DNA of 64,000 nucleotides from Ostreococcus lucimarinus (Eukaryota), in NCBI GenBank assembly GCA_000092065.1, contig CP000594.1. One strand, given 5' to 3'. Positions 22,740-41,200 of the stretch are shown one piece after another. Made by a program: the position numbers and the translations under genes. A model generated the notes under the pieces. The model was not told the DNA's origin. It ran no database searches and worked only from the letters and a program-made list of their open reading frames with translations. Each line of letters starts with the position of its first letter. Positions within the stretch are counted from its first letter, which is position 1.

Positions 22740-22837
22740 ATCAACAGGTCCGGAGTTCGATTCTCCGAGGCCCCTACGACAGACCCATACCTAGGGCACT
22801 CGGGGTCTTAGCTCAGTGGTAGAGCGGTTGACTGCAG
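22740..22837 (+). tRNA. Circularly permuted tRNA-Cys(GCA) gene. The 3' half (22740-22775) lies upstream, then a 26-nt linker (22776-22801), then the 5' half (22802-22837).
   Basis: 5' half GGGGTCTTAGCTCAGTGGTAGAGCGGTTGACTGCAG carries the acceptor 5' strand, a D-arm with the A box, the anticodon stem 5' strand, and CUGCAG of the anticodon loop. The upstream 3' half ATCAACAGGTCCGGAGTTCGATTCTCCGAGGCCCCT carries anticodon stem 3' strand TCAAC, T-arm CGGAG-TTCGATT-CTCCG with the B box, acceptor 3' strand AGGCCCC and discriminator T. The joined halves give a canonical cloverleaf nearly identical to animal and plant tRNA-Cys-GCA. The junction is at position 37/38. Confidence 0.85.
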
Positions 22838-22971
22838 TTAAAAACCATTTCTTTTTTGGACGTTTCTCGTCTCGACGCGTTTAGGGCACTCGGGGTCTTA
22901 GCTCAGTGGTAGAGCGGTTGACTGCAGTTAAAAACCATTTCTTTTTTGGACGTTTCTCGTCTCGACGCGTA
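22792..22971 (+). repeat. Perfect 90-bp tandem duplication. Each unit holds the tRNA-Cys 5' half plus the T6 terminator. The second unit (5' half at 22892-22927) has no 3' half in front of it.
   Basis: The unit tagggcactcggggtcttagctcagtggtagagcggttgactgcagttaaaaaccatttcttttttggacgtttctcgtctcgacgcgt occurs twice, back to back. Confidence 0.9.
22852..22857 (+). terminator. T6 RNA polymerase III terminator directly after the 5' half of the permuted tRNA-Cys. A second T6 at 22942-22947 follows the duplicated copy.
   Basis: TTTTTT lies 15 nt downstream of the 5' half, as expected for a permuted tRNA transcription unit. Confidence 0.6.
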
Positions 22972-23067: not shown

Positions 23068-24864
23068 CTATTTCTTCGCGACGACTTGCGCGAAGCTCAC
23101 TTTGACCTTCTTCGCCGCCGCGGTCTCCGTCCCCGCGTGTAAATCATCGTTGAGCGAGTCCAATTGCGTGATTGAATCGTCTTCTTGCATTTCTTTGCGT
23201 TTGCGAGCCGCCTTCGTATCGTCTCCCAGGGGCAAAGGTTTCTCTTCGGAGATTTTCTTTTCCTCGTCCTCCGCGCTCGCCGCTTTCTTCTCCTTCTCCG
23301 GCGCGTAGATGTCCTTGACGTAGCCGTCGATTTCTTCTTTCACGAAGCTCGGTAAATCCTTGCGCTTCAAATATTTGACGTTCGCCTGCATCCCGGGTAC
23401 CCAGTTCGATTCCCCAGTCGCGCGATCCATCCACGACGTCACAGTCATTTGGAACTGCTCCACCGCGGGATTCAAGTTGAGCGAAACCTTCTCCTCCTTC
23501 TTCTTCAGGCTCGAAGGAAATAACCCCAAGAACAGCGTGACGTGCGAGTTTTCGTCCTTCTCCGGATCTTTGTACCTCGACGTGCCGGGATGCGCAAGCA
23601 TTTGCCCTCCCGTGGCGTTTTCGATGCCTTGGATTAAAAGCTTGATTCGCGAGCCGACCCAACCTTCCCACTTCTTAAAGTCATCTTCGTTCTTGGCCGA
23701 GATGGTAACCATCAAATAATGCTTGTATTTTTCTAAAAAGTTCAACGAACACCACAGCTGCTCCCACTTCGCGGTGTTTAAAAGAATCATCTTGGTCACT
23801 TCCTTGCCGCGCTTGAACTCGGCTTTGAGCACCTCGAGCGTGCTGACGCTCACGTTGAACGTAGAGTTTTGCGCCGGATACGCCGGAGTTAAGATTTTCA
23901 TCAACTGATATCGCTCTGCCTTGTTCACACGCTCGTCCCACACTCGCATCCCGGGTAAGCCTTCGTCGACGATGGGTACGAGCATCACCGGCGTCGTCCA
24001 TTGCCACGCCGACCATAGTTGGAAAAAGCTGTACACGAGCATGGAAGGTGCGGCGTTGGGGTACAACTGACACACGCGCGCTACTAAAATCGCCAGGTTT
24101 ACGCCACCGAAAAACCCGACGACGTTGCTATACACCCCGCGCCGCTGCGCCCACAGACGCAACGTGCGAAGCGCCACTCGAAACGCGTCGTGGTTTGGCA
24201 CGACGCGCAACAACTGATCCGCCACGCGACAACCATTCAGGGATTTCACCCCTGGGTCGTCCAAATTCATCATCACCGACGTCTGACACACGTCTAAGTC
24301 CTCTGGCACGTGCGTGTACGACGGTAAGCTCGTGTACGCCATATCTATTTCAAAACCTCTAAACACGAGTTTGATTTCTGGCACGATGGCGTCGCGCACG
24401 GGCACGATGCTCTCCGTTCCAGGGTGTTTCCGCATCACGTCATAAAACGACCCTTCGTAATCATTCTCATCCCATCCAAAGAAATCCTCCTCTCGGCTCA
24501 GATGTCTCGGCCCGAGGCACAGCGTATCGATATCCGCAGCCGGTCCGTGCACGCCCAATCTATAGCTCCCAAACGTGTACAAGTTACACGACGGCCGCAT
24601 ATCCTCTGTGATCCCCTTTCGCTCGCTCGCCGCCAGCACCCAGTCTTGCAACAACGCGTTTATCTCCCCCAGCACCTCCTCGCGTCGCACGCACTCGTCC
24701 GCGTCTTCGTACACGTCCTCTTCCCGCAGTTTGTCATCGAGCGCCTTGCTCAACTTTTCGTCGAACGCCGTCGGCATCTCGTTCGACATCACGCGATTCA
24801 GCGCCTCCGCGGACGCCGACTGGGTCATGACCGACGGTGCGGAGGGCGTCTGCGCGCCGATCAT
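23068..24864 (-). CDS. PAP: Nuclear poly(A) polymerase.
   Basis: Nucleotidyltransferase motif YTFGSYRLGVHGPAADIDTLCLGPRH. PAP central domain and C-terminal RNA-binding region. ATG at 24864. Confidence 0.85.
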   Translation of the reverse strand: MIGAQTPSAPSVMTQSASAEALNRVMSNEMPTAFDEKLSKALDDKLREEDVYEDADECVRREEVLGEINALLQDWVLAASERKGITEDMRPSCNLYTFGSYRLGVHGPAADIDTLCLGPRHLSREEDFFGWDENDYEGSFYDVMRKHPGTESIVPVRDAIVPEIKLVFRGFEIDMAYTSLPSYTHVPEDLDVCQTSVMMNLDDPGVKSLNGCRVADQLLRVVPNHDAFRVALRTLRLWAQRRGVYSNVVGFFGGVNLAILVARVCQLYPNAAPSMLVYSFFQLWSAWQWTTPVMLVPIVDEGLPGMRVWDERVNKAERYQLMKILTPAYPAQNSTFNVSVSTLEVLKAEFKRGKEVTKMILLNTAKWEQLWCSLNFLEKYKHYLMVTISAKNEDDFKKWEGWVGSRIKLLIQGIENATGGQMLAHPGTSRYKDPEKDENSHVTLFLGLFPSSLKKKEEKVSLNLNPAVEQFQMTVTSWMDRATGESNWVPGMQANVKYLKRKDLPSFVKEEIDGYVKDIYAPEKEKKAASAEDEEKKISEEKPLPLGDDTKAARKRKEMQEDDSITQLDSLNDDLHAGTETAAAKKVKVSFAQVVAKK

Positions 24865-25883: not shown

Positions 25884-25927
25884 ACATGTAGAAAATTTGT
25901 TGTTATACATATACTTGTACACTTTGA

Positions 25928-26548
25928 TTACTGTACGCGGGCCATCCAGTTTGCAGGCGGTGACCAGGTTGTCACCGCCGCATGGTGATCTCTCTGGTCT
26001 TTAGGTGGGCAAGGCCCCATAGCCAAAAACTTCAAAGAACTACTATATTCCAGCGTGTCCAGTGCTTCCACATTGCGAAGCTTTTCGTCATCTCTTTTTT
26101 CCACCAACACGCAGAATTCATTTACTTCCACTGCCCAGGCCTGGCCGGTGTTTCTTTCTATTTTGTACATGCCGGCTCTGCATTGGAGGCCCATATTGAA
26201 AAGCTTAGCCTCGTTGACTTGCTAACAAACTTTCTCAAATGCCTCTACCATTTTCGGCGGTGTGCAACCCACCGGGAAGCGTATAGCAGACCAGCATCGG
26301 ATCGTTTCACAAATGGGCCACCCCCCCATGTCCTTCAGTGCGCCGTTCAAGATATCTACAAGCTCGATCGCCACGGGTGAGTTTCTCGACCAATCTGGGT
26401 CACGGGCACGCATGTAGAGAGGCGACGGCGCATGGGTTTTCAGCAGGGGGGCGATGCGCCAGGACGTGAAGTCGTGTTTCCCCTGAACTTGAAGAACTGC
26501 GAGCAGGTCGGGGTGATAGAATGCTGGGGTGCTCAGGCAACAACCCAT
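25928..26548 (-). CDS. Hypothetical protein with an N-terminal MGCCLS motif (consensus for N-myristoylation plus palmitoylation). The reading frame is interrupted by one in-frame TAG at 26222-26224.
   Basis: ATG at 26548. A TATA box (TATATAAAG on the minus strand, 26687-26695) lies ~140 nt upstream. The same frame continues after the TAG into ORF 25928-26194. No family recognised. Confidence 0.35.
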
Positions 26549-26686
26549 GATGCGCTGTGTTTCTTTTCTCGGCCACGCGCGCGTTTTCTTTTGTCCGCCT
26601 CTCTCTCGCGCGCGCGTCGTCGAGTGATGCTGGTGCCGCTCGTGACGGATTTAAGGGCGTGAACACCCGCGTGTAAAAGCAGACAC

Positions 26687-26695
26687 TTTATATAG
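26687..26695 (-). promoter_or_regulatory. TATA box for the MGCCLS gene.
   Basis: TATATAAAG on the minus strand, about 140 nt upstream of the ATG at 26548. Confidence 0.4.
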
Positions 26696-26756
26696 CACTT
26701 TGGGAGGTTAAAAGGTGTCCCAAAGTCTCATACATTGGCCTATACTTTGGCAACAT

Positions 26757-26794
26757 CCCGCGCTTTGATTACTGTACAGTAATCAAAGCGCGGG
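26757..26794. promoter_or_regulatory. Perfect 38-bp palindrome cccgcgctttgattactgt|acagtaatcaaagcgcggg in the ~340-bp divergent promoter between the MGCCLS gene and the 2OG-oxygenase/DOMON gene.
   Basis: Exact reverse-complement symmetry. Its 15-nt core ctttgattactgtac recurs at 25922-25936, followed there by gcggg. Confidence 0.5.
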
Positions 26795-26889
26795 ATACCG
26801 TGGAATGGACTCGGAAAAACCTCTAGAAGTTCGGCGGCGCCATTCCGCGCGCGATCTCAGCGGGCGAGCGTGATCACCAACGTGGACCG

Positions 26890-28959
26890 ATGAGGCACCG
26901 ATCGTACCGTGTATGCAATGGACGCACGCTCGCACTCATCGCGCTCGTCGTGCTTGTCGCACGCACGCAGCGCGTCTTCGCTTCGCCGACCGACGAGCGA
27001 AGATTCTGGACGCCCACTGTCGTCGCCGTGGACGACGGCGTCGGTTCGAAGATCCGACGCATGGGAAACGATGTGGAGAAATCGAAGTCTTTCGTGTTTG
27101 AGAACACGGTAGCGGAATCGCTGACAAGAGATGGCGTCGTCGCGGTGCGAGTGCGAGGCTTGAACGAAGCAAAGACACAGAGCGCAAAACTCTTCATGGA
27201 TTGCGCGCGGGTTACGGATAATGTTGCAGTAGAAGAGTACGACGATGGATCCAGGCGCGTGACGCTCGCCACGACGACGAAGCAGAGGGGGAGTGGTTTC
27301 GGGGAACCCACGTCCAAAGCATGTAAGAAGTTCGAGGTCACGACGAAAATGCTTCGCGCGAAAGTTTCTGTGGCCGAACAAGCAATCACGGACGTGTTTC
27401 AGAGCAAGTTTTCAGATCTGAGTGAATTTGCGAACGGGGTACTGATGCAGGGAGAGAACGGCGAGACCTATAAAACTTTCTCGGAAGTATTGAAAGACTG
27501 CGAGCACCTTGAACATTTTCACGGCTACACGATTTCACCACAACAAAAATTGAAGAATAGTAAAGTGCGGACGATCGAAGAGCACACGGATCAAGGTCTA
27601 CTCATCGCATTCGTCCCGGCCATAATTGTCGATGCAGTGACGGGAAGGCGCGATAAGTTTTCCTCAACCGGCGATTTTTATATGACGCTTCCTGGGCATC
27701 GCAAGGTGCTTCTCCATTTTGACACGCTTCCAGACGATGTCGTTATTTTTATGCTGGGTCAAGCAATCGAGCAACAAATCACTCCCAAACTTGCAAACGG
27801 CCTTGAGCTTCACGCTGTACCACACGCAATGGATATGCCCAATCTTAAATCTAATCAGTTCAGATTTTGGTATGGGCGAATGTTCCTCCCACCTGAGAAT
27901 GCCTTGGACGAAAGCCATGGTCTCTCTTTTGGGACAGTGCGCGCTAACATCATCGAAGATTTCGCACGTGGGCTGAAGACATCCGTGGGATGTGGTCGTG
28001 AGCTCCTCTCCGTGGCAGGGAGCGGTTCATGCGCTAGCAACCAGATATGGTGCTGGATGCGATGCATGAATCACTCAGCGCCGGCGAGCAATCCACTCAC
28101 ATGCAGGACGGGTCATAGTGTCCAATGTTTGAGCCAAAGACTGGAAGTCTGGACGGATGCCGACAGTCATGGTGATTATAATCCTGGATGCACCGACGAG
28201 ACCAACGAGACAAAGCCCGTCACCGATCCACCGACCATCCCAGCTCGAGCAGCCTCTTGTACAGATGGAAACGCCTGGGAAACTTTTTTGAACCACTCCG
28301 AATATGAAAACAGCTTGGAGCTGTTACAAGATAAGTTATATTTACTCTGGACTGTTCAAAATGGTAAGTTAAAAGCCCGAGTTGCCTTCAATGGCAAGAT
28401 TGGTTGGTTTGCTCTCGGCATCAAAAACCTAGGAGGGAAACACAACGGGATGAACGGGGCGAACATCGTCATGGGCGTCCACGACCCTCATCCAATGGGT
28501 CACGACAGCAATTTCGGTTCTCCTTATGTTGGAAAGAGCAGTGCGAAACAATACAAAATCCACGATCATTCTTCTGCTTTTCGACATTGGAATGACACTG
28601 CTGACGTTGCCTCACCCTTCGTGAGTTCGACGACGTTCAATTCATGTTTCAGTTGTATGCGTTTCGAGACGGCCTCGATACGGGGCGAGGCTCTGAATCT
28701 CACCTCTGGTATTAATGAACTCATCTGGGCTGCTCATGATGGCACTTACCTCAAAGGCTACCATGAAGTACAAGGATTCGATCGGAGAGATGCACGCGGG
28801 CATCTCACGCTTGACCTGACGCGAAATTACGGTCGTGTAACGTGCGGCTTCTCAAGAGGCTGGGCTGCGGCGAGTCAAACATGTGCTTTTTCGGCAGCAA
28901 GCACTCCTTCAGCGATAGTTTCTATATCCATTGCTGTCATTGCAATCCTCGTTATGTGA
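26890..28959 (+). CDS. Secreted, membrane-anchored fusion of a 2-oxoglutarate/Fe(II)-dioxygenase-like domain and a DOMON domain. Has a signal peptide and a C-terminal hydrophobic tail (GPI or TM).
   Basis: Signal peptide MRHRSYRVCNGRTLALIALVVLVARTQRVFA. H-x-D...H motif (EEHTDQGLLIAF ... LELHAVPHA) typical of 2OG-Fe(II) oxygenases. C-terminal DOMON-like region (LYLLWTVQNGKLKARVAFNGKIGWFALGIKN...LIWAAHDG). C-terminal tail AIVSISIAVIAILVM. Confidence 0.6.
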   Translation: MRHRSYRVCNGRTLALIALVVLVARTQRVFASPTDERRFWTPTVVAVDDGVGSKIRRMGNDVEKSKSFVFENTVAESLTRDGVVAVRVRGLNEAKTQSAKLFMDCARVTDNVAVEEYDDGSRRVTLATTTKQRGSGFGEPTSKACKKFEVTTKMLRAKVSVAEQAITDVFQSKFSDLSEFANGVLMQGENGETYKTFSEVLKDCEHLEHFHGYTISPQQKLKNSKVRTIEEHTDQGLLIAFVPAIIVDAVTGRRDKFSSTGDFYMTLPGHRKVLLHFDTLPDDVVIFMLGQAIEQQITPKLANGLELHAVPHAMDMPNLKSNQFRFWYGRMFLPPENALDESHGLSFGTVRANIIEDFARGLKTSVGCGRELLSVAGSGSCASNQIWCWMRCMNHSAPASNPLTCRTGHSVQCLSQRLEVWTDADSHGDYNPGCTDETNETKPVTDPPTIPARAASCTDGNAWETFLNHSEYENSLELLQDKLYLLWTVQNGKLKARVAFNGKIGWFALGIKNLGGKHNGMNGANIVMGVHDPHPMGHDSNFGSPYVGKSSAKQYKIHDHSSAFRHWNDTADVASPFVSSTTFNSCFSCMRFETASIRGEALNLTSGINELIWAAHDGTYLKGYHEVQGFDRRDARGHLTLDLTRNYGRVTCGFSRGWAAASQTCAFSAASTPSAIVSISIAVIAILVM

Positions 28960-29210
28960 CGCGGAAGTTTGCATTCTTCACGATCTTTCAATCGACACCC
29001 GAAACAGTCTGAGCACGCACCGACAGTCACGCCGTTGTAGGTCCCGGCGTGATAACAGAACTCTTCGCTTGATGCGAGTGCGTTCGTGCTCGCGTACGCA
29101 CTCGAAACGGTGCAGTCGGCGTGAGAGAAACACACGTCGCCCGGGTCCGCGCGCGCGGTGTGCGCGACGGCGAGAGCGAAAACGAACGGCACGAGGAGGT
29201 TCTGAAACAT
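28875..29210 (-). CDS. Candidate small secreted cysteine-rich protein. Its 3' end overlaps the C-terminal coding sequence of the convergent oxygenase/DOMON gene by 85 nt.
   Basis: ATG at 29210. Signal peptide MFQNLLVPFVFALAVAHTARA, then 8 Cys in ~70 aa. Could be spurious. Confidence 0.25.
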   Translation of the reverse strand: MFQNLLVPFVFALAVAHTARADPGDVCFSHADCTVSSAYASTNALASSEEFCYHAGTYNGVTVGACSDCFGCRLKDREECKLPRHITRIAMTAMDIETIAEGVLAAEKAHV

Positions 29211-29345
29211 TTTTGGTGTGGGTTTAGCTCGCGAAAAAGTTTCAGCGAGGCTTGACGTGCGCCGCAAAGTGAGGTTCGGAGATCCGGAGATCCGCCGGTT
29301 GACGCCCCGCGGGGCGTGTGTGCCAGCCCGTAGGGTTTAGGGGAT

Positions 29346-29437
29346 CGGACATATGGAGCCTCACTATTAAGACACACTGTCATATATATTAATGGATTTA
29401 TGACAGTGTGTCTTAATAGTGAGGCTCCATATGTCCG
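29346..29437. repeat. Hairpin-forming inverted repeat: perfect 39-bp arms (29346-29384 and 29399-29437) around a 14-nt AT loop. Imperfect arm extensions reach ~29300-29466 (shared ccccgcggggcg).
   Basis: cggacatatggagcctcactattaagacacactgtcata and its exact reverse complement. Confidence 0.85.
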
Positions 29438-29703
29438 ACCGCGGGCACACATCCCCGCGGGGCGCCAGCAGGGTCAGGTCGCAATTTTGCGTTTTCCCGC
29501 TCAGCCTTCACTAGAAACGTGTCTAAACCGGCCACTTTTTAAATCTTGTTTTTTGCTAGGTTTTTACTGTCTCCGGGTCTCGGAGGAATCGCGTGGAGTG
29601 ACCGGTTATGGGTTTAGTGGTTGGAGGTCCTGTGAGGAACTTTCTCTCCGTCACTTTTTTTCCATTTTTGAAAAAAAAAACGTCACATGTAAACTTTATA
29701 AAT

Positions 29704-29729
29704 AAACCTATAACCTATAACCTATAACC
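29704..29729 (+). repeat. (AACCTAT)n heptamer microsatellite, about 3.7 copies.
   Basis: aacctataacctataacctataacct. Confidence 0.8.
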
Positions 29730-29862
29730 TTGAAGGTTGAAATTTCTTAAGACCCGGGGTCCGCTGTTAAGGGGGGTCGGAACGCACAGAGAAATCGGGC
29801 TCGTCGTCCTGTGTATCAGCAGTCCTGTAGTAGGAAGTCATTTTTTGCTGTTTTGGGCATCC

Positions 29863-30172
29863 CTTGCGTTCAGAGATTCCATTCTGAAGAAATCTTAAGC
29901 GAGGGCACCAAAAACTCAAGGTCTCAACGGTCGCACGCTTCAGACTAGTTACATCTTCTGTACCTCCAAGCAGCGAAGTGCTCCTGTGTGTCAGGTTTGT
30001 CTCACCAAACACCGAGATCTTCGAGAAGACGAACACGTTCCGCTGAGAGTTTGCACGTGCACCTGTCTTCCTTTGCCTGATTTGTGAGCCATCACCCCAG
30101 ATTTGAATGTGGCGTATCTTATCGCGACACTCTCGCTTAAGATCTCTTCAGAATGGAATCTCTGAACGCAAG
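29863..30172. mobile_element. MITE-like 310-bp element bounded by 41-bp terminal inverted repeats with one mismatch. It is nested inside an imperfect outer inverted-repeat pair (29793-29829 and 30313-30357).
   Basis: TIR-L cttgcgttcagagattccattctgaagaaatcttaagcgag at 29863-29903. TIR-R at 30132-30172 is its reverse complement (a/g mismatch). No internal ORF. The surrounding context is an AT-rich, low-complexity intergenic region. Confidence 0.5.
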
Positions 30173-30996
30173 CCGTGGATGTATTAAACTGTGAACGAGG
30201 CTAGTCATGGTTCGATTTTTTGGATTACAAGTGTAGGTCTACTTTTACGTTTCGTGGACTCCGCTTGAGTCGGCCGATGTCACCACGTCAGGTGTTTCGA
30301 GTGCACTAGAGACGTGACCGCCGATACACAGGACGTCGAGCTCGGCGTGCCTGATTTCACGACTCGGTGACCATGGTTTGAAACCGAAATGACCATCGGC
30401 TTCAGGCCCAGGCGCGGCCGCAATGCTACTTTAAACTTAATATATTTTTTTTGAAAAAAGAGTAGTAAGAGTAATAAAAATAAACTTTTTTTTTGAGTTG
30501 GGGCACCCCAACATGATAAAACCGCACATCGCGGCGAGCCATGCGCGACCATCAATTTGATGTCATGTCTAGTCAGGCTCTCGTGGTAAAAACGTAAGAT
30601 GTGCTTATTACAGCATATGCCAATTGCGCAGTAAATCTCGAAGGACGACATCAAACATATCACAGAGCGCGCGCTTCACACCGTACAACACCATCTAAGG
30701 TACTTTCGACCGACGTTTTAGGCAATTTTGACTCGCCGACTGGTCTTTTCCAGTTGTGACGTCAGATTCGATACGATACTGGGTTACGATGCGTTGAGTT
30801 GGACTGTAGAGGCCTGTACCCTTACATGCACATCTTCCATGGAGCGCTGGAGAAAAGGCATTGTTGCATAATTATTGTCAAAATATAGATATTTTAATTT
30901 GACGCCACCATTATTAACTTTAAAATCAAGCCAGATCGCGACGACACTGAACATTTGAATGTGTATTCACACTTGAGAGACACTGGTTTCGGCAAC

Positions 30997-31980
30997 TCAC
31001 GATCGAGTACCGAAGACAAAATTAGCGCACTTTTTTCTATCATCTGCAGAATGCGAGTTTGGCGCATTTTTTACTGCGTCGCAGTGTTTCTTAGCCGCTT
31101 TGCACTGTTTGGAGCAGACATGCGGACATGCTGCCACCCAGGTTGGGTTGGAACATAGATGGCGCCTGCCTTCCGGCTTGCCGCAGCCCCGCGGAATCGA
31201 TTCACAGGGAGCCATGTTGGGTAGATCAGGCGTTTCCCAGACGGTACCAGAGATACCATCGAAACCTGGGCACGTGTAATCGTCACTCAGAGTACAGCCA
31301 GTCGCCGCCGAGCCTTGACAAGATCTTTTCCAACCACCCAAACGCCTATGGCCCTTTGTACGCTTTTGGCAAGTACCCGTCGACACGTTGTACGCTTGTT
31401 TAGCTTCCTTAGTATCAAACGAGTGACACACGCATGAATCAATCAGTGGCAAAGCGCGGACCTGTACGGCCGGCTCATGCTCGCACGCCCAACACGAGTG
31501 TCCTCCAATACTGATCCCGAACCGCTGGCGCATCTCTGACGCGCAGACTTTCGCGCGTTCCTCCTCGTTGAGCTCCATTCCCGCGCAGGCACAAGCGCAC
31601 TGTGCACGCGACCACTCCACTCCATCTGTCGCACCAACATAACCTCTCATATCATTCTCCAGTTGGGCGTGTTGGTCGTGGCATATTCTCGCACACGCCG
31701 CGAATGTCTTCATAGATTCTGGTAGTCCGTAGTGCACCGCGGCCTGGGACACCGCGTCGTCATCCATGAGTTTCCACCCCGTGACCCCCGAGCTCACTGG
31801 CCGCCGCCGCCGCCCGAGCTCACTTGACGGTGCATCCAAATCACCGCCCGCATCGCCTGGGTCCGTCGCCACCGCCGTGAACGGCGCATCCGCGTCAACG
31901 CCCGCGGCGACGTTCAGCGCCGCGGCCCCCACGAACAGCGCCAACGTCAAAGGTGACACACATTGCCTTCGAAACCCCAT
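30997..31980 (-). CDS. Secreted cysteine-rich hypothetical protein, about 327 aa.
   Basis: ATG at 31980 (MGFRRQCVSPLTLALFVGAAALNVAAGVDA, a signal peptide). About 30 Cys in clustered patterns in the C-terminal half. The listed ORF starts further upstream at a non-ATG codon. Confidence 0.45.
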   Translation of the reverse strand: MGFRRQCVSPLTLALFVGAAALNVAAGVDADAPFTAVATDPGDAGGDLDAPSSELGRRRRPVSSGVTGWKLMDDDAVSQAAVHYGLPESMKTFAACARICHDQHAQLENDMRGYVGATDGVEWSRAQCACACAGMELNEEERAKVCASEMRQRFGISIGGHSCWACEHEPAVQVRALPLIDSCVCHSFDTKEAKQAYNVSTGTCQKRTKGHRRLGGWKRSCQGSAATGCTLSDDYTCPGFDGISGTVWETPDLPNMAPCESIPRGCGKPEGRRHLCSNPTWVAACPHVCSKQCKAAKKHCDAVKNAPNSHSADDRKKCANFVFGTRS

Positions 31981-32270
31981 CCCGCGCGCGCGATCTGCTT
32001 TTTCGTCCACGCGGCGTCCACTCGCGAACGCGCGGATACCGTTCGCTCTCTCAGCGCCCTCCACGTCCGATCGGTTCGGAAGTGACGCGCGCGCGCAGAA
32101 TAGTTTCGCGTCACAACGCAATTATTCATTCCCGTGTTGATTTTATTCTATTCCAGGGGGTATGGGTATAGAGTTTACAGTGCCTTCGTACGAGATATTT
32201 CCCAACACCCTTTAGTACCAAAACCTAATTGCGTATCTTCCCTCACTTTCCGACGTCACGCGCGCACGCG

Positions 32271-35200
32271 ATGACGTCGGCGACGCCGAAACGACGGCGC
32301 GCGCGCAGATTTTTGTATGCGTTCGGAGGACCGACACTCTTATTTAACCTCATGCGCGTGTTTGCCATGTCCGGGCTCGTGGCAACAATTACAATGTCAA
32401 CAGCCGCGGGCGCCGCCCACGGTGGAGGTGCGAGCATGGACGAGGGACCGGCGCAAATGCATTATATGCCTGATCGATTTCGCAGCCTCGCGGGCGGCGG
32501 CTGGCTTACTATCTCATCGAGAGACGTGCACAAGAGCCTGATGCCCATGCCTGGGATGCGCGGTGGCGGGGAAGGCGCGAATGAGTCAGCAGTAAGTGGC
32601 AGCGCGATGAAGGACGAGGTGAAGATCGATCTGGCCCACGGTGACCCAGACGGTGAGCGATCGTGCGATCTCGTGCATTACAAGTCATCCTCGAATGAGT
32701 TGGTGTGTTCACCACGTGCGGTGGATTGCTGTTTGGACGGACTCACGGCGCAGGAGCTCGCCAGCGTAAGCGATGGGTGCCCGTCGGTGAGACCAGAGCT
32801 GAACGTCGAGGTCAACGGTCAGCGATTGACGTGGGGCAGCGCTGGTAGAAATGGAAGGGACACGCTCACGGACGAAAGTCTCAAAGTGAGCCATGGGCAG
32901 ACGCCGACGATCGTGGCGGTCGAGCCGGCTGAGGTTCGTCCCGGTGAGTTGATCACGGTGTACGGACGAACGTGCTTTGGCGATGTTTGGAAGAAAGATG
33001 AAGATGATGGTTCGTCTCTACGTGATGATCCCGACGCACTGCGAGATCTATTCTCGGTTGAAGCGAGCGCAAGAGAGGATCCGCGCCAAGAAATTGGATT
33101 GGAAAAGTCTCTCTACAAGGTGCTCATCGGTGACCTACCGTGCGAGGTTCGAGATCCACTCACAAACAGGTACTACCGATCCGAGCGCGGCGATGGTCCA
33201 TACACAGCCCACCGGCAAACAGAGTGTGGACCCGTTAACGGTTGGTTTCAGTGCCGTGTACCCCAAGACATCGATTCCGGTCTTCATCTACTTCATTACG
33301 AGACGTACACCAGAGGCAATGCTGTGATCCTGTCTGAGGCGCTCAGATGGAATGCATCGGACGCGTCCAAGGGCTACGTGCTGTCAGTGGTTGATGATAA
33401 GTCGGAAGATGAAGATCCACCGCGTGTTTATAACATAACGCAGCTCTCGAAGGATGAGTCCAAACAGCGACTCCTTGTTGAGGGTGCGTCTCTTGATGCG
33501 CCAAATATCGTCGTCGAGCTTGACGGGGAGCGCTGTGGTGGAAAAAAGGTTGTGTCCAGATCTGGCATCGAGGTTGAATGCTCAGGTTCAGCTGGAGCGA
33601 GCTCGCAGTATCACTACGGCCCCCCCGCGTGGCTGCGTGAAGACTGGGTGTTCAAGGACAAGAATAATAAGTTTGTCGGTGGCAAAGCGTGGTCTAACGC
33701 TCTCCACGTTTTGAAGCAGCGTGGAGAAAGGTACAACCCTCTCGCCGACGAAGTCATGGACGCTTTAAGCTCGGCATTGGCAACGAATGGCATTGTCCGC
33801 GGGTACAAGATCGAGAAAGTTCAACAGTATCTCACGAGCCCATCGGTTGGATCACCATATGTTGAGGCAACTAGCGGCATGAAAGCGGCGCACGCCGGAC
33901 TCATCCGTCACCGAAGGATACGGAATGCTGTGTTTGAACGTGTAAGCGGAGTCATCACCGCCAAAGCAAACGGGCGAATGCGCGTGGCGATCGCCAATGC
34001 GGCGGGCAATAACATGGTGCTTCGTGTGCGACATGTTTCCGACAACTTAAATGTATTCAAACCTTGGTTGTTAGTTTCCAAATTTTGCGGCACCAGATAC
34101 AGCAGACAAAACATTTATCGATACGGCTTTTCACAGTGGTTCAGTGTTCGTGGTAACGAAAAATACTATATGGAATTTCTGATGAACTTGGACCCCAGAT
34201 ACTTGCACAATTTCGGGGGATTCGATGTTAAGATGGAATTTTCCTACGACGCGGGTAATCCTGCGGGATCAATTGGGCAACTTACGCACACGACAACGCC
34301 TCACGTGCCCAAACGAGCGCATGGTGGCGATTACGTCGTGCGCTTTAGCGGCGCTTCGAAAACTGCGATCAGATTCGCTCATAATGCAACTTCTTCAAGA
34401 AGCAATTTTGAGTGGAAACTCTTCAGTGGCGGCAAGACCATCGAGTTCAATACGAAGAATTGGTTGCATGCACGCGAACACGTGCGGAAAGTTAGAGACG
34501 CTCTGCGATGGGCTAACTGTACCGCGCTGCCTGAAGACTCAAAGATGTGGGACGCGGACTCGACCCATTCTTCGCACCCATTCGACGTCGAGAATCGATG
34601 GCTCATGGTGCGTGATACGCAGACCTTCAAAGAGCCCACCACAGATTGGAACTTCATATGGCAACGTCGCATGGGCGGATTCAGAGGCGCGTCGATCGAC
34701 TGGAGTACCTCGTACTGTTCGACACACAGTCAAAAATTTGATTTGTCGTCACTACCCCCAGGAAGAGTCATCACTCCTTCTTCTCATTTCGACGTACCTG
34801 CATCTTCTCGTGCGACGACGAATAAGTTTCTGAACTTTGCCTACAAAGTCACTCCGGGTACGCGAGCGACCTTGTTACTTCGTCTAAAGTACCGAAGCGG
34901 TAATCGGGACATATCGACCACGTGCGCGGTTCTCCTCACCCATGAACAAGCGACTGGGAACGTGAAGAACTTCGATCACCCAGCGTGTGTGGACCTTCGA
35001 AGCGTCTTCAAGGATGATGGAGAGTGGCACTTTATTTCATTCGATTGGCGAACTGCGTTGGCCGGTGGTGAGTATGCCCCGAGTTATTTGGGCGAGGCTA
35101 TGTTCCCGCATAAAGTGCAAGTTCAACTCGATGGTATCGGTGTCGGCGCGCAGAGATTCCTCGGCAAGTGTCCGAATAAACAGCGCTTAGCGGAAATGTA

Positions 35201-38200
35201 TGTCGGTGATGAAGGAAGTGAACTGCGCGGTTACCTCTGGTTGGATAGCGTTTCTGTGACACAGGAACGCTACTCTCCTCAACGAGTCGAGACGCCCTCT
35301 GCACAGCTCGGAGGTATGCAAGAAGGCGTTCACGCAATCACAGATATTGAATATTCGGTCATCAGCCGAAGCGATGGCTCTAAGTGCAAATCGCTGTCGG
35401 ACTGTGATATCATCGTGAGCCTGCGTCAGGTGAAGAGATGCATTGATGCGCAGTCGCGAGGCGATTTCAATATTTCGCCGATGGTGATGTCACAGACGAG
35501 TCCAAACCCGCAACCCGCGACGGTCTCGTGTGGTCGTCACTATGCAGCGAACTGCTCGACTTGTCCGTGGAAGGTGTCCGCGGAAGGTGTCCGTGGAAGG
35601 TGGATGGGCTGGAAATATTGCAATGGTGCGTGCGAATGGAGATGGCACGGGCGTATCAATGCAGGTGGCACGTGCGTGTCAAAGCCAGCTCCAACTCCTC
35701 CGGCAATAACAGTCACGGATCGTACTTCTTCAACACGTGGAACCGTCACTGCACAGATCACAGGGGGGACGATGACGCAATTTTCCACCTCTGCCAATTC
35801 ATCTGAAGTGCAGGACGCATTACGTCATGTCCTCGGAGCGCACGACGGAGGCTTCGTGGTGAGTCCAAGCATGGATTTGTTTGATGCGTGCGGTGTGAGC
35901 GCTCATCGCATGCGCGTTGCGCATGCGAGCGATCTCGAATCGATCCAAGCGCGGTACAAAGAAGTCGTCAATGGTGTGCCCCTGGGAATGCTACCGAAAT
36001 CTTCCCGAGGCCGCACTGCGGAAAATGACGCAGGTCTCCTTAATATAACTGTGAATGTCTCAGGCGGCCTCGCTGAGATAGTCGCGACAGACGAGTCGAG
36101 CGATTTCATCGGTATGGTGCCCCTGGACACGAGAACAGATCTCGATGTGCGCGCCTTGATTCGCGGTGGCGACGCCGTGTTGGCGACGGCTGTTGTGACG
36201 GATGGCGACACAGTCGTACCATGTTCTGTCTCACCTGACCGTATGTCTGCGACTGGCTTCAAACAAGTTCCGAACGGGCAGGCATTCGTTGGCGATGCTT
36301 CTTGCCACATCATTGTGCCACACGAGGAAGTTGCATCTGACGCGACCGTGCACGCTCCGACGGAGTTGAATCAGGATGGTTTTCCCTCACTCGGTGAGTC
36401 CGTGAGTCAATCGAGTCCGACAGACCAGAAACGTCGACGGGACGTCGAAACTATCCGTCGGCGCAGCATGTCAAACTCGCTAAAATTTCCTGGCCATGAT
36501 ACCTGGGCAAAACGAGATCTATCGATGAGTAGATCCGATCTTGGACGATTAACAGTCACAGTGGTTGGTTTTGGTGCGCGTGTGCACAACGGCGCCGCGC
36601 ACCGTAGAGCTGCGAATCACGCGCGGAAACTGTTGAAAACGGAACTCGTCGCGAAGGATGCAGGTCAGGGGAGTCTCAACAATACGAAAAGCAAGTATGA
36701 ATTTCCGGCGGGCGCGGGTCGATTCAGTGATCCATCGACGTGGGGTCCTCGGGGAGTGCCGGACCAAAACTCGACGGATATGCTCTTTATTCCTGCCGGT
36801 TTCAATCTTACTCTGGATGTCGCCGATACGTACTTCCGCGTGTGGGTGATTGAGGGGCACCTAAATTTCCAACGGGGCATGAACATCACGATGCAAGCAG
36901 AAATGATCGTCATCAACGGCGACGACGCACACTTTAGCATTGGGAGTGAAACACGTCCCTTTGAAGATCAGGCGAATATCATCATGCACGGTCACTGGCG
37001 ATCCCTCGGCTTGCCCAAATATGGGGTGAAGTGCATCTCACTGACGAGCGGACGATTAACATTCTATGGTCAGCACGTCACGCCTTGGATGGAACTGGCC
37101 ACTACGGCTTCAGCTAACGCAAACGTTATTTCCGTCAGAAGCAAGGAAGGCAAGACTCCAGATCTCGCCGGATGGAAACCGGGTGCGAGTATTGTGGTGA
37201 CGTCAACCTCTTACGGGGACAGGAGATGTCGGCAAAACCGTACAGACGACTGTCAACCCGAGGAGCGCGTTATTGAATCTGTCACTCCTAGAGGCAACTT
37301 TGCGGACATAACTCTCGATCGACCGTTGAAGTATGAACATTTGGGTGAATCCGTGAATGTGGCGGGAAGCCCCCGCGGGGCTACGATTGAGCGTCGTGCT
37401 GAAGTAATGCTTCTCACGAGAAATATCAACGTGCGCGGCACGACTGAACACAATGGGTATAAGCTCGTCGGCTTTGGCGCGCACACTATGATGATGTCTG
37501 GTCAAATGGTGTTGAAAAATGTTGAATTCGGCCCAAACGTCGGACAGGCCTTCCAACTGGGTCGGTATGCCATCCACTACCACACGCCCAATGAAAAGAT
37601 GTTCAAATATGGTTTGACAGCCTCAAATGACCCGAGGATGCAGGGCGCAGACCAGCGCTTGAGTCGTGTGGAGGGAGTCTCGGTCCACCAATCAAACAAC
37701 CGTGCGATCGCGGTGCATGGTTGTTATCGACTGAACATCATTAACAACGTCGCGTACAACATCTTGGGACATGGGATGTTCGTTGAAGATGGTGTGGAAA
37801 TGTGGAACCTCTTCAAGGACAACGTTGTTTCTCTAGTGCATCGCTCTTTCTCTCTTTTGAACACTGATCAAACACCTGCAGCGTTTTGGATATCGAACGC
37901 TAACAATTTCTTCATCGGTAATCGAGTGTCATCGAGTAATCATCATGGATATTGGTTTGACCCACCAGGAGGACCTACCGGACCGTCGTCGCGAACGCTC
38001 ACGGGGCCTTTGGAAATCCAAAAATTAAGCACTCGGAAGGTACCGCTCGGCCAGTTTGAAAATAACAGAGCCCACTCGAATGGCCACTCCGGACTTTGGA
38101 TTGATCAAATAAACACGGTCTTGCAGCAAGGCGGCAGGCTCAGAATGTACATGGTCGGTACCCACGTATGGAACAATGGAATCAACGGTTTCGGAATGAT

Positions 38201-41200
38201 TACCGGCGTTGGGCATCTACAGATTGTGAATACGTTTGCCATGGGCAACGGGATTGACATCATGTATATCAAGTCGACTGGTGCGACGTGGGCGATGCCG
38301 ACGAATGGTTGGTCCGGTAACTTGGTGTACAACGCCACCCTTCGCGGTGACCCGAAACGCAATACCCAGGCAATCGGCTGTCCGCACGGCGGATGGGTAA
38401 CATTTAACGATATCCTCATTAGTGGCTATCAAAGTAGGTTGCCCCCAATACACCACTGCGCTGTGTGTCCGGGTTTCAAAGGCGGCATGGAAGTTCGTTT
38501 CATGAATATGAAATTCGTCGACAGTGATACAAGGCGGCTCCGCGGTGGTTCAACATCTCGACCGCGCGTATTCTGGAACGGGTACAACTCCAACCTTTTG
38601 CTCGACGTGGATGGGACCCTGAGTGGATCGCCAGGTCCACGATGGGCGCATTCAGTCAAGGGCGCCAGTGATGATCCCAGGAACCGGCCGACGGGTCATT
38701 TTCCGCCAGAACACTGCACCCTCAATGATCACATCGGAGGTGTTGTTTGCGACGCCAACACTGTGTCGTTGCGAGAGGTGCAGTGGCGCCGTATCAAGCC
38801 CATGACCCTTATACCCATGGCGATGCAGACAGCACCTGATCAAAATGCAGGGCAAGTGAACTTTTATCATTACGACCATATCGAGCGACGTTTCAATTGG
38901 CGTACGACATTGGTTATGGTTAAAAGTCCGAACGCGAAGCCATACATCCATAACTTTACGTTTAAGTTTAAAACATGGCAAATTGATGACCCGGACGCTT
39001 GGTACATGGAGGTCCGTGAGCTTCAGCCCAATGAATGGGCTATAATGCGATTCCCCACACTCCGCAATCCGTGGCGTTGGAACTTGAATTCAAGAATACC
39101 GACGGTCACATTGAATAACTACAATCAAAGTGATTATAGTTTCAATGAGAGCAAGGCCATCACCACCACGAGCAACGAATGGCTGAGTTGGAAAAATCAC
39201 AAGTTCGGCGACCACACATACCTACCCGTTGTGGAGACAAGGGATGTTAATGTAAAGCCAGATCCAGGGCTGCTCGATATCATGATATCTGGCAAGCGCG
39301 AACAAGGATGGACACAATCGTACGCCCTCGGTGCCAACTATGATGGCGCGCGTGAAGATATGCCCGTCTGCACCACTTCATGCGGAAGCTCGGCAAAGTC
39401 AACATGTGGCATGAAACGCTACAACTGCAGACCGGGCGACAAGAAACGATGTTTGCCGATGGAAAAGCCTGCAAACTGCTTCGACAATCGACCTATACCC
39501 GAGGTAGATCCCGAGCCTAAAACTTTTTCCTGGTGCGACTCAAACGAAGTTTGGTCTCCGCCGGCATTCGGGGATGACGTCATGATCAAGGCTGGTTGGA
39601 CGGTCATCTTAGATGAAACCTGTCTGGTGACCAACATAACTAGACACGTGGATTTATATGGGTCCCTGTTGCTTCGTGATCCAGGCGCTGGTAAAACCAT
39701 CAAGTTCCGAGCGCAGACCATCCACGTCGCGGCTGGGATTGGATACCTCGAAGCTGGTGACCAGGATGATCCGATATCGAATGGCGACGTTCGTATCGAG
39801 CTTTATGGGAACAGATTTTCTAACGCTCGAATGGGCTACGGTATGGAGACAAAGTACATCGCCGTTCTCGGACACCTCAGCCTCGTCGGAAAGGCGAGCG
39901 TGGAGCAAACGTGGTCGACGCTTAGAAGCGATGCGCCCGCGGGAAGCAGTACAATTGAAACGACAGCCTGTGGCGGTTGGAATACTGGCGACACGCTCAT
40001 GATTGGTGGCGCTATGCACAATTGGACCGGGATCAAGCATGCTTGGTTTTTGAGCGCGGAGCGCTGTGATATTTCCTCCATAGCAGTTGCGAGCGAAGGT
40101 TGCGTCATACGGTGTACTTCCAGCTTCAACTACACGCACTCAGGCCCGGCCCAAAAGCACGAGGTCAGTTTTGGTGGAATGCCAGTGACTCTCATGCATA
40201 GGCGCTCTCCAGGTGGGCGCGTGCAGGTAGTTGGCATGGAAGACAAAAACAAGGCACTGGCAGAGCAGCACTATGGTGCTGTTATTACTATCCTGAAACC
40301 GAAAAAGAAAGGCTATGACGCAAAATTGGCTAAGAGATTCAAGATAGAACTCAAGACGCCCGAGCGCATGCAAGCGGCAACTGAAAGCATGAAACATGAT
40401 CCCCCGCCTGAATGCCACCGCAGACAAGGTTCGGCTGTGATCGTCAATGTCAACTTTGCGCATTGCGGTCAGCGGCACTCTAGTCGCGCGTGTGTTTCTT
40501 TTGCCGCCGGTATTGGCGCTGAGTATCGAGCTACGTTCGCAGAAACGACATCGATGGCACTCGTTGCGAACAACACATTTGCGGACGCCTACAATTTTGC
40601 CGTGAGCGCAGCAGGAGATGGAATTATTATAGAGAATAACGCCATCGCACAAACCTATCACGGTGGATTCGAGGTCTCTGGTGCGAACAACACAATGTCT
40701 AATAACGCAGCTGTTCGATTATTCGACGATGTTAGTGATTACTTTCACGACATTGGGTCGGTTGGTTTCAAGTTGTCGGGATCAGGGAAATGGTATACTA
40801 ACGTCGTCGCCTCCGTGCAGTACACTGGGTTTAAAATTCCTGGATATCCGTGCGAAATGATGACTCCAGACGTGGAGGATGAGGGTTTAGACGTTCGCGC
40901 TGTGACCACCGTTCCCGCCGAACCTACAATGCGTGACCTTCGCGCGTATGGTGGCATGGTAGGCGTGAATCTGCGGGGCGGGCGTACTCGGATGGTCACA
41001 CGTGAACCGGTGGAGGCCTACGCGCCGCTCGAGTGTCGCCAATGGAGCGACTTCGAGATTCGTTCAATGGTTTGGTACGGCGTAACCACGTTTGGTCAGG
41101 GAAAAACGTCTATTGTGTTGAAAAACTTTAATATTTGGGACACCGGACTTGGTTTCGCGCTGTGGATGGTCAACGGTGGCTCAGCCGCAGGTTCGAGCAG

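Follow-up and report, generated by a model that had tools for sequence, protein, structure and literature searches.

Ostreococcus genomes are among the most compact eukaryotic ones, and to our knowledge repeats on their standard chromosomes have scarcely been described. In Bathycoccus prasinos, regular chromosomes carry low-GC cassettes of one to a few genes, which are present or absent among ocean metagenomes and whose borders are fixed across samples (Vannier et al. 2016, PMC5128809). In Ostreococcus mediterraneus, a 1,001-bp spacer that lacks ORFs and carries 225-bp inverted repeats occurs in six copies, on chromosomes 4, 7, 8, 9, and 10 and on the small outlier chromosome, and was put forward as a candidate non-autonomous transposon (PMC13390643).

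We analyzed a 64,000-nucleotide stretch of nuclear DNA (the window), whose proteins are those of O. lucimarinus CCE9901 (XP_001421431, XP_001421254), encoded on a chromosome of 708,927 bp. It resembles the Bathycoccus case in being from the Mamiellales and in carrying a low-GC block with fixed borders on an ordinary chromosome. By description, its positions 29596-30531 (936 bp) can be likened to the spacer of the sister species: both are about 1 kb long, lack an ORF, contain long inverted repeats (imperfect ones in the window), and are present in low copy on standard chromosomes. We consider it probable, if by no great measure, that the region from 29.3 to 30.5 kb is a gene-less patch made of what remains of heads and tails, as we call the two kinds of non-coding module that recur beside genes in O. 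lucimarinus-type genomes.

Inverted repeats of the patch

The repeats that the first-pass annotation had reported in this patch (Table 1) are real. Its 92-bp hairpin stands, with the inner arms corrected from a perfect 39 bp and the outer arms placed anew; the microsatellite and the outer imperfect pair were confirmed. Arm probes of 28-29 nt each had two matches in the 64-kb window, namely these sites, with none expected in shuffles. In quality, the hairpin and the pair of 41-nt repeats rank first among the inverted repeats listed for the window; the rest are 70-87% matches between tracts of low-complexity, GC-rich sequence. The patch had also been described as AT-rich, which holds only relative to its flanks (GC of 0.485 at 29300-30360 versus 0.62-0.65 in flanking core DNA), and as devoid of ORFs, which is true in substance: there are overlapping mechanical ORFs of 89-141 aa, none with a Pfam match. 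A 39-aa ORF at 29608-29727 was considered as the beginning of a plus-strand gene since lost, and rejected, as this stretch is tail sequence (R3) common to other loci.

Table 1. Features of the patch and of the surrounding island (positions in the window).
Feature	Position	Strand	Properties and basis
Low-GC island	25922-42095	.	GC 0.53 versus 0.62-0.65 in flanking core DNA
Perfect 42-bp palindrome, ATCCCGCGCTTTGATTACTG-TA-CAGTAATCAAAGCGCGGGAT	26757-26798	.	Junction; alternatives in wild contigs
5' flank of the minus-strand 111-aa gene at 28875-29210	29211-29344	-	Sequence and comparison with head motifs of other loci
Entire imperfect palindrome	29295-29472	.	Read as two facing h-type head modules
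Hairpin outer imperfect arms	29295-29314 and 29453-29472		20 nt, 85%
Hairpin inner arms	29345-29387 and 29396-29438		43 nt, 98% complementary, 8-nt spacer
h module (left arm and loop)	29345-29404	+	87% identity to L002 9755-9814
Putative inverted degenerate head promoter-like motif, AAATCTTGTTTTTTGCTAGGTTTTTACTGT	29541-29570	+	Sequence; weak alignment, score 31
Tail copy X, R3-like subtype	29596-30134	-	89% paralogue in cassette B; family alignment
(AACCTAT)x3.7 microsatellite	29705-29730		100% matches
Outer inverted pair	29796-29824 and 30316-30344		29 nt, 86%
Inverted pair (core S)	29863-29903 and 30132-30172		41 nt, 40/41 complementary, 228 nt between
Tail copy Y, R1 subtype	30132-30531	+	Alignment to other copies; opposite orientation to X

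The structure of the patch was reproduced in more than 20 independent metagenome contigs at 99.9-100% identity, and is thus not an assembly artefact. Apparent deletions of the hairpin center in L001 and L004 proved to be N masks, as are the N runs in some JGI contigs. Since every wild contig across the patch carries it in the same form, we regard it as old and stable there, and not visibly unstable now. Its ancestral gene-bearing state was not recovered. In wild populations, the low-GC island around it varies robustly.

A function of the hairpin or inverted pair itself, as a structured RNA, small-RNA precursor, replication origin, or centromere-type element, strikes us as very improbable. The predicted fold is indeed very stable (-80.5 kcal/mol for 29290-29480 as ssDNA, z = -14 versus shuffles), the center is AT-rich, and conservation in wild contigs is perfect; however, the flanking non-coding DNA is equally conserved, so that the conservation is not hairpin-specific, and the paralogues elsewhere are not hairpins. 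At gathering score, Rfam reported only a tRNA and snoR117, both elsewhere in the window, and similarity of the hairpin to miRNA families was sub-threshold and structure-only (19-46 bits versus gathering scores of 47-100).

Dispersed head and tail modules

In a metagenome scan, the 41-nt repeat proved to belong to a dispersed tail module, in which it forms the core (S). The scan matched 77 metagenome stretches, 3 by chance, leaving 74 true matches, a figure that reflects copy number per genome only indirectly; their flanks form 33 clusters on the interior (gene) side and 19 on the outer side. Homology around S falls stepwise on both sides, extending over 200-330 bp on one and 35-390 bp on the other. 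S usually lies just downstream of a gene, often a giant one: ORFs of more than 800 aa, from at least seven different genes, terminate 95-332 nt before S and run in its direction, and no such end lies on its outer side. The reference strain is linked in through a gene of the same chromosome that matches XP_001421296 at 100% identity: it has a head-TA-head arrangement upstream, and S with an R1 tail about 120 nt past its stop codon. The neighbors of S copies belong to clusters (at least 90% identity) with members on contigs of 681,234-1,145,847 bp. A tail would consist, in order from the stop codon, of a 3'-UTR-like interior, a core S of 41-60 nt, and one of the outer variants R1, R2, or R3. Many different pairings of interior with outer subtypes were found, a variety that chimeras of short-read assembly, or related species mixed in the samples, could have inflated.

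Heads, in turn, appear to be promoter-side modules, about 100-400 bp in size. The sequence at the outer end is TA-CAGTAATyTACCC...GCGGGATGA.TGGCATAAAT; next is a variable middle of h-type or C-type, succeeded by the motif AAACTCGATTTTTGCTAGGGTTTAG, from which it is 16-231 nt to the start codon of the gene. This motif was found in 14 contexts, 13 of which have a co-oriented ORF beginning with ATG within that downstream range, and head or h copies are present in at least eight further loci. The readable outer ends start with CAGTAAT after TA, even beside unrelated DNA (L073, L069, L086, and L079). Elsewhere heads meet at a TTACTG-TA-CAGTAA palindrome: natural head-TA-head palindromes are present in L116 and L120, and the junction core TTACTGTACAGTAA in L079, L105, L113/L115, and L116. 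Tandem duplications of the core occur, a 20-nt telomere-like insert sits exactly between two cores, and there are mini-units of 24-35 bp made up of nothing but two termini. In L105, the end of one tail, GCGGGATTACTG-TA, is a head terminus in inverted form; a matching tail-end terminus was found only there.

Both arms of the hairpin can be placed in the head family. The h copy in L002, which belongs to a cassette (B) of wild genomes, is located 52 nt before the start codon of a DUF285 giant gene, and comprises the left arm and loop only. Homology between the two stops at ...ATTTATGAC, where the window continues as an inverted copy; ATGAC, a 5-nt microhomology, is common to both sides of this switch point. 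Further h-like copies, 77-87% identical (L116, L045/L101, L112, L057, L113/L115, and L058), are likewise single-armed and not hairpins. The outer-arm sequence, CCCCGCGGGG.GTGTGTGCCAGCCC, is also present upstream of the h-like module in L115. A 20-nt stretch of the left arm (29325-29344) corresponds to 5 nt of the right arm, and telomere- or telo-box-like TAGGGTTTAGGGG lies at 29331-29343 (found by a search with AAACCCTA). To the left, at 29220-29245 in the 5' flank of the 111-aa gene, the promoter-like motif of heads is present in degenerate form. To the right, 29541-29570 looks like the remnant of a right-hand head, the match being weak and degenerate; it terminates in the junction-like TTACTGT (29564-29570), and no intact core exists within the patch. 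We propose that the hairpin represents two h-type heads placed head to head, as for divergent genes elsewhere, whose center of about 100 bp, expected to hold TTACTG-TA-CAGTAA, would have been lost, with the joint in the ATGAC microhomology.

The remaining repeats fall into two oppositely oriented tails. Tail X, oriented for a hypothetical minus-strand gene to its right, contains the microsatellite, the left copies of the outer repeat and of S, and a 3'-UTR-like interior at 29904-30134. Its first part, 29596-29716, is common to L062, L108, L077, L074, and L089 at 95-98%, and 29717-30134 corresponds to L002 982-1391 in cassette B. Tail Y contains the right copies of S and of the outer repeat; the end of R1 reads ...GCAATGCTAC at 30429, after which come an AT-rich stretch and a palindrome, TTGGGGCACCCCAA, at 30498-30511, and shared sequence stops at 30531. 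Between 41 and 26 other copies align with Y over +60 to +286, and about 20 to +390. Two contigs with alternative joins at S, L025 and L026, were considered as proof of haplotypes that break at the right S, and rejected, since they depart from the window only within the R1 repeat (30126-30444) and may be assembly chimeras.

The first-pass annotation had read these structures as non-autonomous transposons or foldback elements, with the S pair as the terminal inverted repeats (TIRs) of a 310-bp unit. That these are independent elements, a foldback of 92 bp and a MITE of 310 bp inside a larger one, each mobilized via its own TIRs, is in our judgment highly unlikely. The inverted repeats are long, near-perfect, and without coding capacity, the units are small, the arm sequences belong to multi-copy, transposon-like families, and the O. 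mediterraneus spacer offers a possible precedent (PMC13390643). However, the S repeats are not the ends of a mobile unit, for homology runs past them: the cassette B paralogue has the left "TIR," the interior, and 146 bp of flank to the left of that repeat, and stops at 30134, where the right "TIR" is just beginning; the latter is missing from it. The arms recur, but singly; the paired form was found in 2 of the 74 true matches (L049 and L106), both of which are this locus, and neither the whole unit in unrelated contexts nor the whole palindrome was found again. No target-site duplication borders the hairpin (GGGGA/CCGCG at 29345-29438), the 310-bp unit (CATCC/CCGTG at 29863-30172), or the outer pairs, and no insertion polymorphism was seen in the more than 20 wild contigs. 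Direct-repeat families are absent from 28800-30900, so the arms lack the subrepeats typical of foldback elements. What survives of the earlier reading is the non-coding, multi-copy nature of the sequences and their location in a variable part of a compact genome, not discrete MITEs or foldback elements.

Under the remnant reading, the 310-bp "element" would be minus-strand tail X abutting plus-strand tail Y, with the joint in a 7-9-nt similarity (GaCACTCTC), and the pair would be the leftover after deletion of one or more genes between two outward-facing tails. The module families and the way they face genes are shown, as are the breakpoints and, 2.5 kb from the patch, robust variability of cassettes. 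Judging from position and motif, heads may provide promoter function through the telo-box-like AAACCCTA element, and tails may provide 3'-end or termination signals. We infer that the modules, through their homology at dispersed sites and their palindromic junctions, favor breakage, ectopic recombination, and microhomology-mediated deletion, and that the inverted repeats are probably scars without a function of their own. The modules may have spread by recombination between homologous flanks, by a Tc1-like transposase, or by a site-specific recombinase.

The low-GC island and its variable junction

The island around the patch contains cassette A (a 148-aa gene), a 689-aa DOMON gene, the 111-aa gene, the gene-less patch, a 355-aa gene, and a giant G8/CEMIP gene, cut short at 42051 in the reference. 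Outside the cluster to which it belongs (at least 90% identity), the 689-aa protein has nearest relatives of at most 40% identity, and these are not syntenic. A 3,954-aa ORF of the window, considered as a DUF285/PARCEL gene, proved to be VPS13-like. With its GC of 0.47-0.53, and with a cassette present or absent among metagenomes at fixed borders, the island has the properties of a Mamiellales dispensable cassette; the inverted repeats themselves do not.

The junction at 26776, about 2.5 kb upstream of the patch, has at least six other left-hand sequences in wild contigs; the seven alternatives compared all end RATTACTGTA. The sequence shared at the junction (8-22 bp) falls well below the k-mer lengths given for the contigs (k119-k141), which makes it unlikely that the alternative joins are repeat chimeras. 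One alternative is the 9-kb DUF285 cassette B, which is missing from the reference, occurs with identical borders in at least 16 contigs, and holds paralogues of the patch's modules at both ends. The same 8 bp, TTACTGTA, flank it on both sides and are present once in the empty allele. It has a proper terminus at one end only, the other reading TCCGTATG....

Could heads and tails be the two ends of Tc1/mariner (IS630) cut-and-paste transposons with host genes as cargo? The patch would then consist of abutting or nested ends with internal deletions, and the palindromes would be pairs of termini sharing one TA. A TA beside CAGT is typical of Tc1-like elements, and the outer ends of heads, the abutting ends (...ATTACTG-TA-CAGTAAT...), the L105 tail end, and the mini-units all fit. 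Nevertheless, we think this explanation unlikely. No cognate transposase was found near the loci searched: a Sleeping Beauty protein query had no tblastn match in 997 kb of window and loci, and neither transposase nor integrase is among the Pfam families listed (25 of 84 for 85 neighboring ORFs, and island genes). Further, cassette B has its proper terminus at a single end, several sequences at one TA would need extreme target preference, and cargo of 7-12 kb is atypical of the superfamily. The TA and CAGT termini belong to heads and junctions outside the patch, and are absent from its own repeats.

Alternatively, the TTACTG-TA-CAGTAA palindrome with its CCCGC/GCGGG arms could be the site of a recombinase or homing-type endonuclease, at which cassettes are swapped as in integrons or Cryptons, the patch being decayed sites and cassette ends. 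The identical core at all seven alternative junctions and the 8 bp that bound cassette B agree with such a site, and the core duplications and telomere-like insert suggest breakage there. We hold it to be distinctly improbable, as no recombinase or endonuclease gene is among those same listed Pfam families near the copies, the patch lacks an intact core, and an 8-bp repeat is equally expected from target-site duplication or microhomology. A Helitron was rejected by eye, because the boundaries of cassette B never end in CTRR at any placement of the 8 bp, and the units end ...ATTACTG; an LTR element was rejected on its ends. A megablast of 28000-32000 against a phage collection found no match, and IMG/VR scans with the hairpin arm, S core, junction half-site, head terminus, and head motif returned zero matches each; a prasinovirus or other viral origin is accordingly not supported.

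The sequence RATTACTGTA-CAGTAAT is present at the seven alternative junctions and in at least five other loci. A bolder, and doubtful, proposal is that Ostreococcus has a dedicated cassette system, in which genes, many of them for lectin- or adhesin-like surface proteins of 2,000-4,000 aa (DUF285/PARCEL, G8-CEMIP, Tectonin-discoidin, and TSP1), lie between a portable promoter head and a terminator tail and move from locus to locus by exchange at TTACTG-TA-CAGTAA through a transposase or recombinase. If true, it would be a eukaryotic counterpart of gene shuffling by integrons and cargo transposons, and could diversify the cell surface in an arms race with prasinoviruses.

Comparison with known systems

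The structures that drew attention to this locus are thus not active MITEs, and probably have no function of their own. We regard them as by-products of dispersed head and tail modules that lie beside accessory genes, often giant and of surface type. If this holds, the modules offer a sequence handle on how the low-GC cassettes of Mamiellales are built, expressed, and exchanged. They also carry a warning for metagenomics, as short-read contigs break, or may mis-join, at such modules.

The Bathycoccus paper describes no border repeats, its text containing neither "repeat" nor "inverted" (PMC5128809). The locus reported here differs from those cassettes in its conserved head and tail modules, its palindromic core, and its cargo, which includes lectin- or adhesin-like proteins of 2,000-4,000 aa. 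Unlike the O. mediterraneus spacer, its arms are separately dispersed, and their paired form is unique to one locus.

With Tc1/mariner (IS630) elements and Stowaway MITEs the system shares TA beside CAGT ends, short TIRs, and non-coding derivatives; it differs in the lack of a transposase among the sequences searched, in its gene-sized units, and in having unlike ends, head versus tail. The patch's own inverted repeats lack both CAGTAAT termini and a TA duplication.

Surface-protein genes with conserved flanks are also known from parasites: the upstream types of Plasmodium var genes, and the 70-bp repeats and 3' elements of trypanosome VSG genes, serve expression and ectopic recombination. In contrast to var and VSG genes, those considered here give no evidence of switching or mutually exclusive expression, have differing domain architectures, and are interstitial, not subtelomeric, though telomere-like motifs occur in their heads. 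As in those families, however, large surface-protein genes that are unrelated or evolve fast share conserved non-coding blocks both upstream and downstream.

Inverted repeats of the gene-less patch and their paralogues

All four features that the first-pass annotation had described in the gene-less patch at 29.3-30.5 kb (a hairpin, a microsatellite, an inverted pair and an outer pair) are present, and the ORFs overlapping the patch are without a Pfam match, in keeping with its statement that the elements contain no ORF. The hairpin and the 41-nt pair are the two top-quality inverted repeats within the 64 kb; probes made from their arms gave no further match within the window (0 expected by chance). 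For the palindrome, the predicted folding energy is -80.5 kcal/mol (z = -14). The stretch recurs at 99.9-100% identity in more than 20 independent metagenome contigs, indicating that it is real and currently stable.

Features of the window and their coordinates
Feature	Position	Strand	Remarks
VPS13/Vps62-like ORF, 3,954 aa	37-11901		core gene; GC 0.49 (low)
Plant-type C/D-box snoRNA, snoR117	21019-21098	minus	43.4 bits (gathering score 42); fits O. lucimarinus origin
Hairpin, outer arms	29295-29314 and 29453-29472
Hairpin, inner arms	29345-29387 and 29396-29438		43 nt, 98%
Microsatellite (AACCTAT)3.7	29705-29730
Outer 29-nt pair	29796-29824 and 30316-30344		86%
41-nt inverted pair	29863-29903 and 30132-30172		40/41

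These features had been read as MITE-like or foldback elements. The patch is indeed repeat-derived and lies within a variable island, but its inverted repeats are not discrete mobile units: their paralogues are single-armed, and target-site duplications were found neither at the hairpin nor at the 310-bp unit. The paralogues, one for each structure, lie at the two ends of cassette B, a 9,039-bp insertion relative to the reference that is carried by many wild contigs and encodes a 2,740-aa DUF285/PARCEL protein. At one end, contig L002 982-1391 matched window 29717-30134 (89%), a match that takes in 146 bp of flank ahead of the left “TIR”, then the interior, and ends at 30134, only a few bases into the right “TIR”. 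At the other, L002 9755-9814 matched window 29345-29404 (87%), that is, the left arm and loop; past the loop, this copy of the h module diverges from the window and forms no hairpin. Because the paralogues run past the inverted repeats or stop inside them, the inverted repeats do not mark the limits of the repeated units.

Tail and head modules

The patch consists of inverted juxtapositions of two kinds of module, heads (on the promoter side of genes) and tails (after the stop codon), joined at microhomologies. The module families keep to one orientation with respect to genes and meet at a conserved core.

Tails were delimited by a single metagenome scan with the 20-nt core of their shared segment S (TCTTCAGAATNGAATCTCTG), which returned 77 stretches, three of them chance matches. 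Two inverted copies of S occurred, among the true matches, only in two contigs (L049 and L106), both representing the window's own locus. Many contigs end at S, as expected of assemblies, which break at repeats. Clustering of the sequences flanking S gave 33 groups for one side and 19 for the other; homology falls stepwise on one side (about 80 copies at S, 50 at -60 and 27 at -200), while the other has three main variants, R1 to R3, and interior and outer variants are paired in many combinations. The interior side is gene-proximal: ORFs of more than 800 aa, from at least seven different genes, run in the same orientation as S and stop 95-332 nt before it, and none ends likewise on the outer side. 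Among these large genes are DUF285, a pair of G8/CEMIP-discoidin-TSP1 genes and one Tectonin-discoidin gene; the remaining neighbours are ordinary and diverse, with no transposase among the Pfam families listed.

The flank structure of the S family and the side on which its genes lie identify window 29596-30134 as one minus-oriented tail (X, R3-like), of which 29596-29716 is common to five further loci at 95-98%. Window 30132-30531 is a second tail (Y, R1) in plus orientation. The “310-bp element” is no more than S and the interior of X abutting the S of Y, and the outer imperfect pair is the next conserved block of both tails. The two tails are joined within a short stretch of similar sequence, which reads GACACTCTC in the window, GACAATCTC in cassette B and AGCACTCTC in L026.

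Outward from the start codon, the cassette B gene has the motif CTAAACCCTAGCAAAAATCGAGTTT, the h module and then ...ATATTAATGGATTTATGAC TAGCATCCCGC...GGGGGTAAATTACTG-TA. The same plan, with a C-type middle, recurs in other cassettes at the junction and at loci elsewhere. Where readable, the outer end of a head begins CAGTAAT with TA in front, and a co-oriented ATG-ORF lies 16-231 nt downstream of the head motif in 13 of its 14 contexts. Between divergent genes, two heads join as ...ATTACTG-TA-CAGTAAT..., a long imperfect palindrome (L116, L115 and L120).

The arms of the window hairpin are head modules: both contain h and, nearer the gene, the block CCCCGCGGGG.GTGTGTGCC, which precedes h in L115 as well; the central part, junction included, is missing. 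Since homology to the cassette B head stops at ...GGATTTATGAC and the inverted arm starts ATGACAGTG..., the joint lies in a 5-nt microhomology. We read the hairpin as a probable head-to-head junction with its centre deleted; the same sequence would also result if one head had been duplicated locally in inverted orientation.

Variability of the island and dispersal of the modules

Cassette B, absent from the reference, is inserted at window 26769-26776, the centre (TGTACA) of a perfect 42-bp palindrome (26757-26798) that in wild contigs, including L002 (819-9907), is preceded by at least six other sequences. Seven alternative left-hand sequences were seen at 26776: A (the reference), B, B', C, C', D and E, all ending RATTACTGTA and abutting CAGTAATCAAAG. 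As the sequence common to these joins (8-22 bp) is shorter than the k-mers in the contig records (k119-k141), repeat chimeras are unlikely. What distinguishes B from B' (L001/L002, about 9843-9893, versus L035/L040) is a 20-nt telomere-like insert (AGGGTTTAGGGTTTTGGGTT) exactly between two tandem TTACTGTACAGTAAT cores. Both of these differences, the alternative left-hand sequences and the insert, are robust. Such an insert is the kind of event expected of break repair involving telomerase, and suggests that this took place here.

Elsewhere in the island, wild contigs have a 78-bp direct repeat (TTGGGAGG...CCCGCGCTTTGATTACTGTAC; L001 226-303) bracketing the 855-bp cassette A, and the reference is without 62 bp of it at 25916/25922; cassette A (96-98% identity) is more diverged than its surroundings (99.8%). 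The reference G8/CEMIP giant gene (32229-42095) is cut short at 42051 relative to wild contigs: L099, L113 and L115 match to that point, their ORF runs about 2 kb further, and there follow an S tail, a 217-aa gene and two heads separated by three tandem palindromic cores. In L025 and L026 the Y tail, on the side of the 355-aa gene, is joined precisely at the right-hand S to different DNA, which carries either ordinary genes or a G8/TSP1 giant gene; because every difference from the window falls within the R1 repeat (30126-30444), these contigs are not robust and could reflect either recombinant haplotypes or chimeric assembly.

Two window proteins, the poly(A) polymerase (23068-24864, minus strand) and the DOMON protein of 689 aa (26890-28959), have exactly the sequences of O. 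lucimarinus CCE9901 XP_001421431 and XP_001421254, both on one 708,927-bp chromosome, and the window's eukaryotic Pfam domains agree with this origin. Each of the two proteins has two NCBI accessions of identical sequence (XP_001421431/XP_001421465 and XP_001421254/XP_001421289), which could reflect either gene models entered twice or a segment duplicated in the reference. GC is patchy (0.62-0.65 in core stretches, 0.53 in the island at 25.9-42.1 kb, 0.485 in the patch); low GC is not confined to accessory cassettes, since the low-GC VPS13/Vps62-like ORF is a core gene. Outside the island, a perfect 90-bp x2 tandem repeat (22792-22970) with a tRNA-like stretch (GGGGTCTTAGCTCAGTGGTAGAGCGG...; no ARAGORN call) varies in length among wild contigs, and L013 runs on beyond 22993 into different genes (Zip, LHC).

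On the same chromosome, the 2,136-aa Tectonin-discoidin protein XP_001421296, encoded at 100% identity by six contigs (L120-L125), has a head-TA-head upstream and S (C variant) with an R1 tail about 120 nt past its stop codon. All six break a few hundred base pairs to each side of the gene, within these modules, showing that head and tail repeats fragment short-read assemblies. Genes beside other S copies form clusters of at least 90% identity with members on contigs of 681,234-1,145,847 bp, and on this indirect basis the families appear to be dispersed over several chromosomes.

Possible roles and comparison with known systems

Heads may act as promoters; the telo-box, AAACCCTA, is a known plant promoter element. 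Tails may supply 3' ends: in their interior, about 60-70 nt before S, lies TGTAA, which serves green algae as a poly(A) signal. Dispersed homology and palindromes could lead to ectopic exchange, breakage and deletion, and the inverted repeats as such would do nothing. A cognate transposase was sought, and no enzyme gene for module spread was found within about 1 Mb of related DNA; nor did IMG/VR scans with the arm, S core, junction half-site, head terminus and head motif give a viral link.

The main value of the finding lies in the module and junction system reached through it, not in the inverted repeats themselves. This architecture is not described in the literature searched by full text, which is not proof of novelty. 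The TA-CAGT ends are like those of Tc1/mariner elements, and the conserved core is reminiscent of a recombinase site. PARCEL/DUF285 genes are reported to differ in distribution among Ostreococcus chromosomes (PMC2996958), and O. mediterraneus has a 1-kb ORF-less spacer with 225-bp inverted repeats, present in six copies and possibly a non-autonomous transposon (PMC13390643). Bathycoccus has low-GC dispensable cassettes with fixed borders (PMC5128809), although these, unlike the cassettes here, were described without border repeats.
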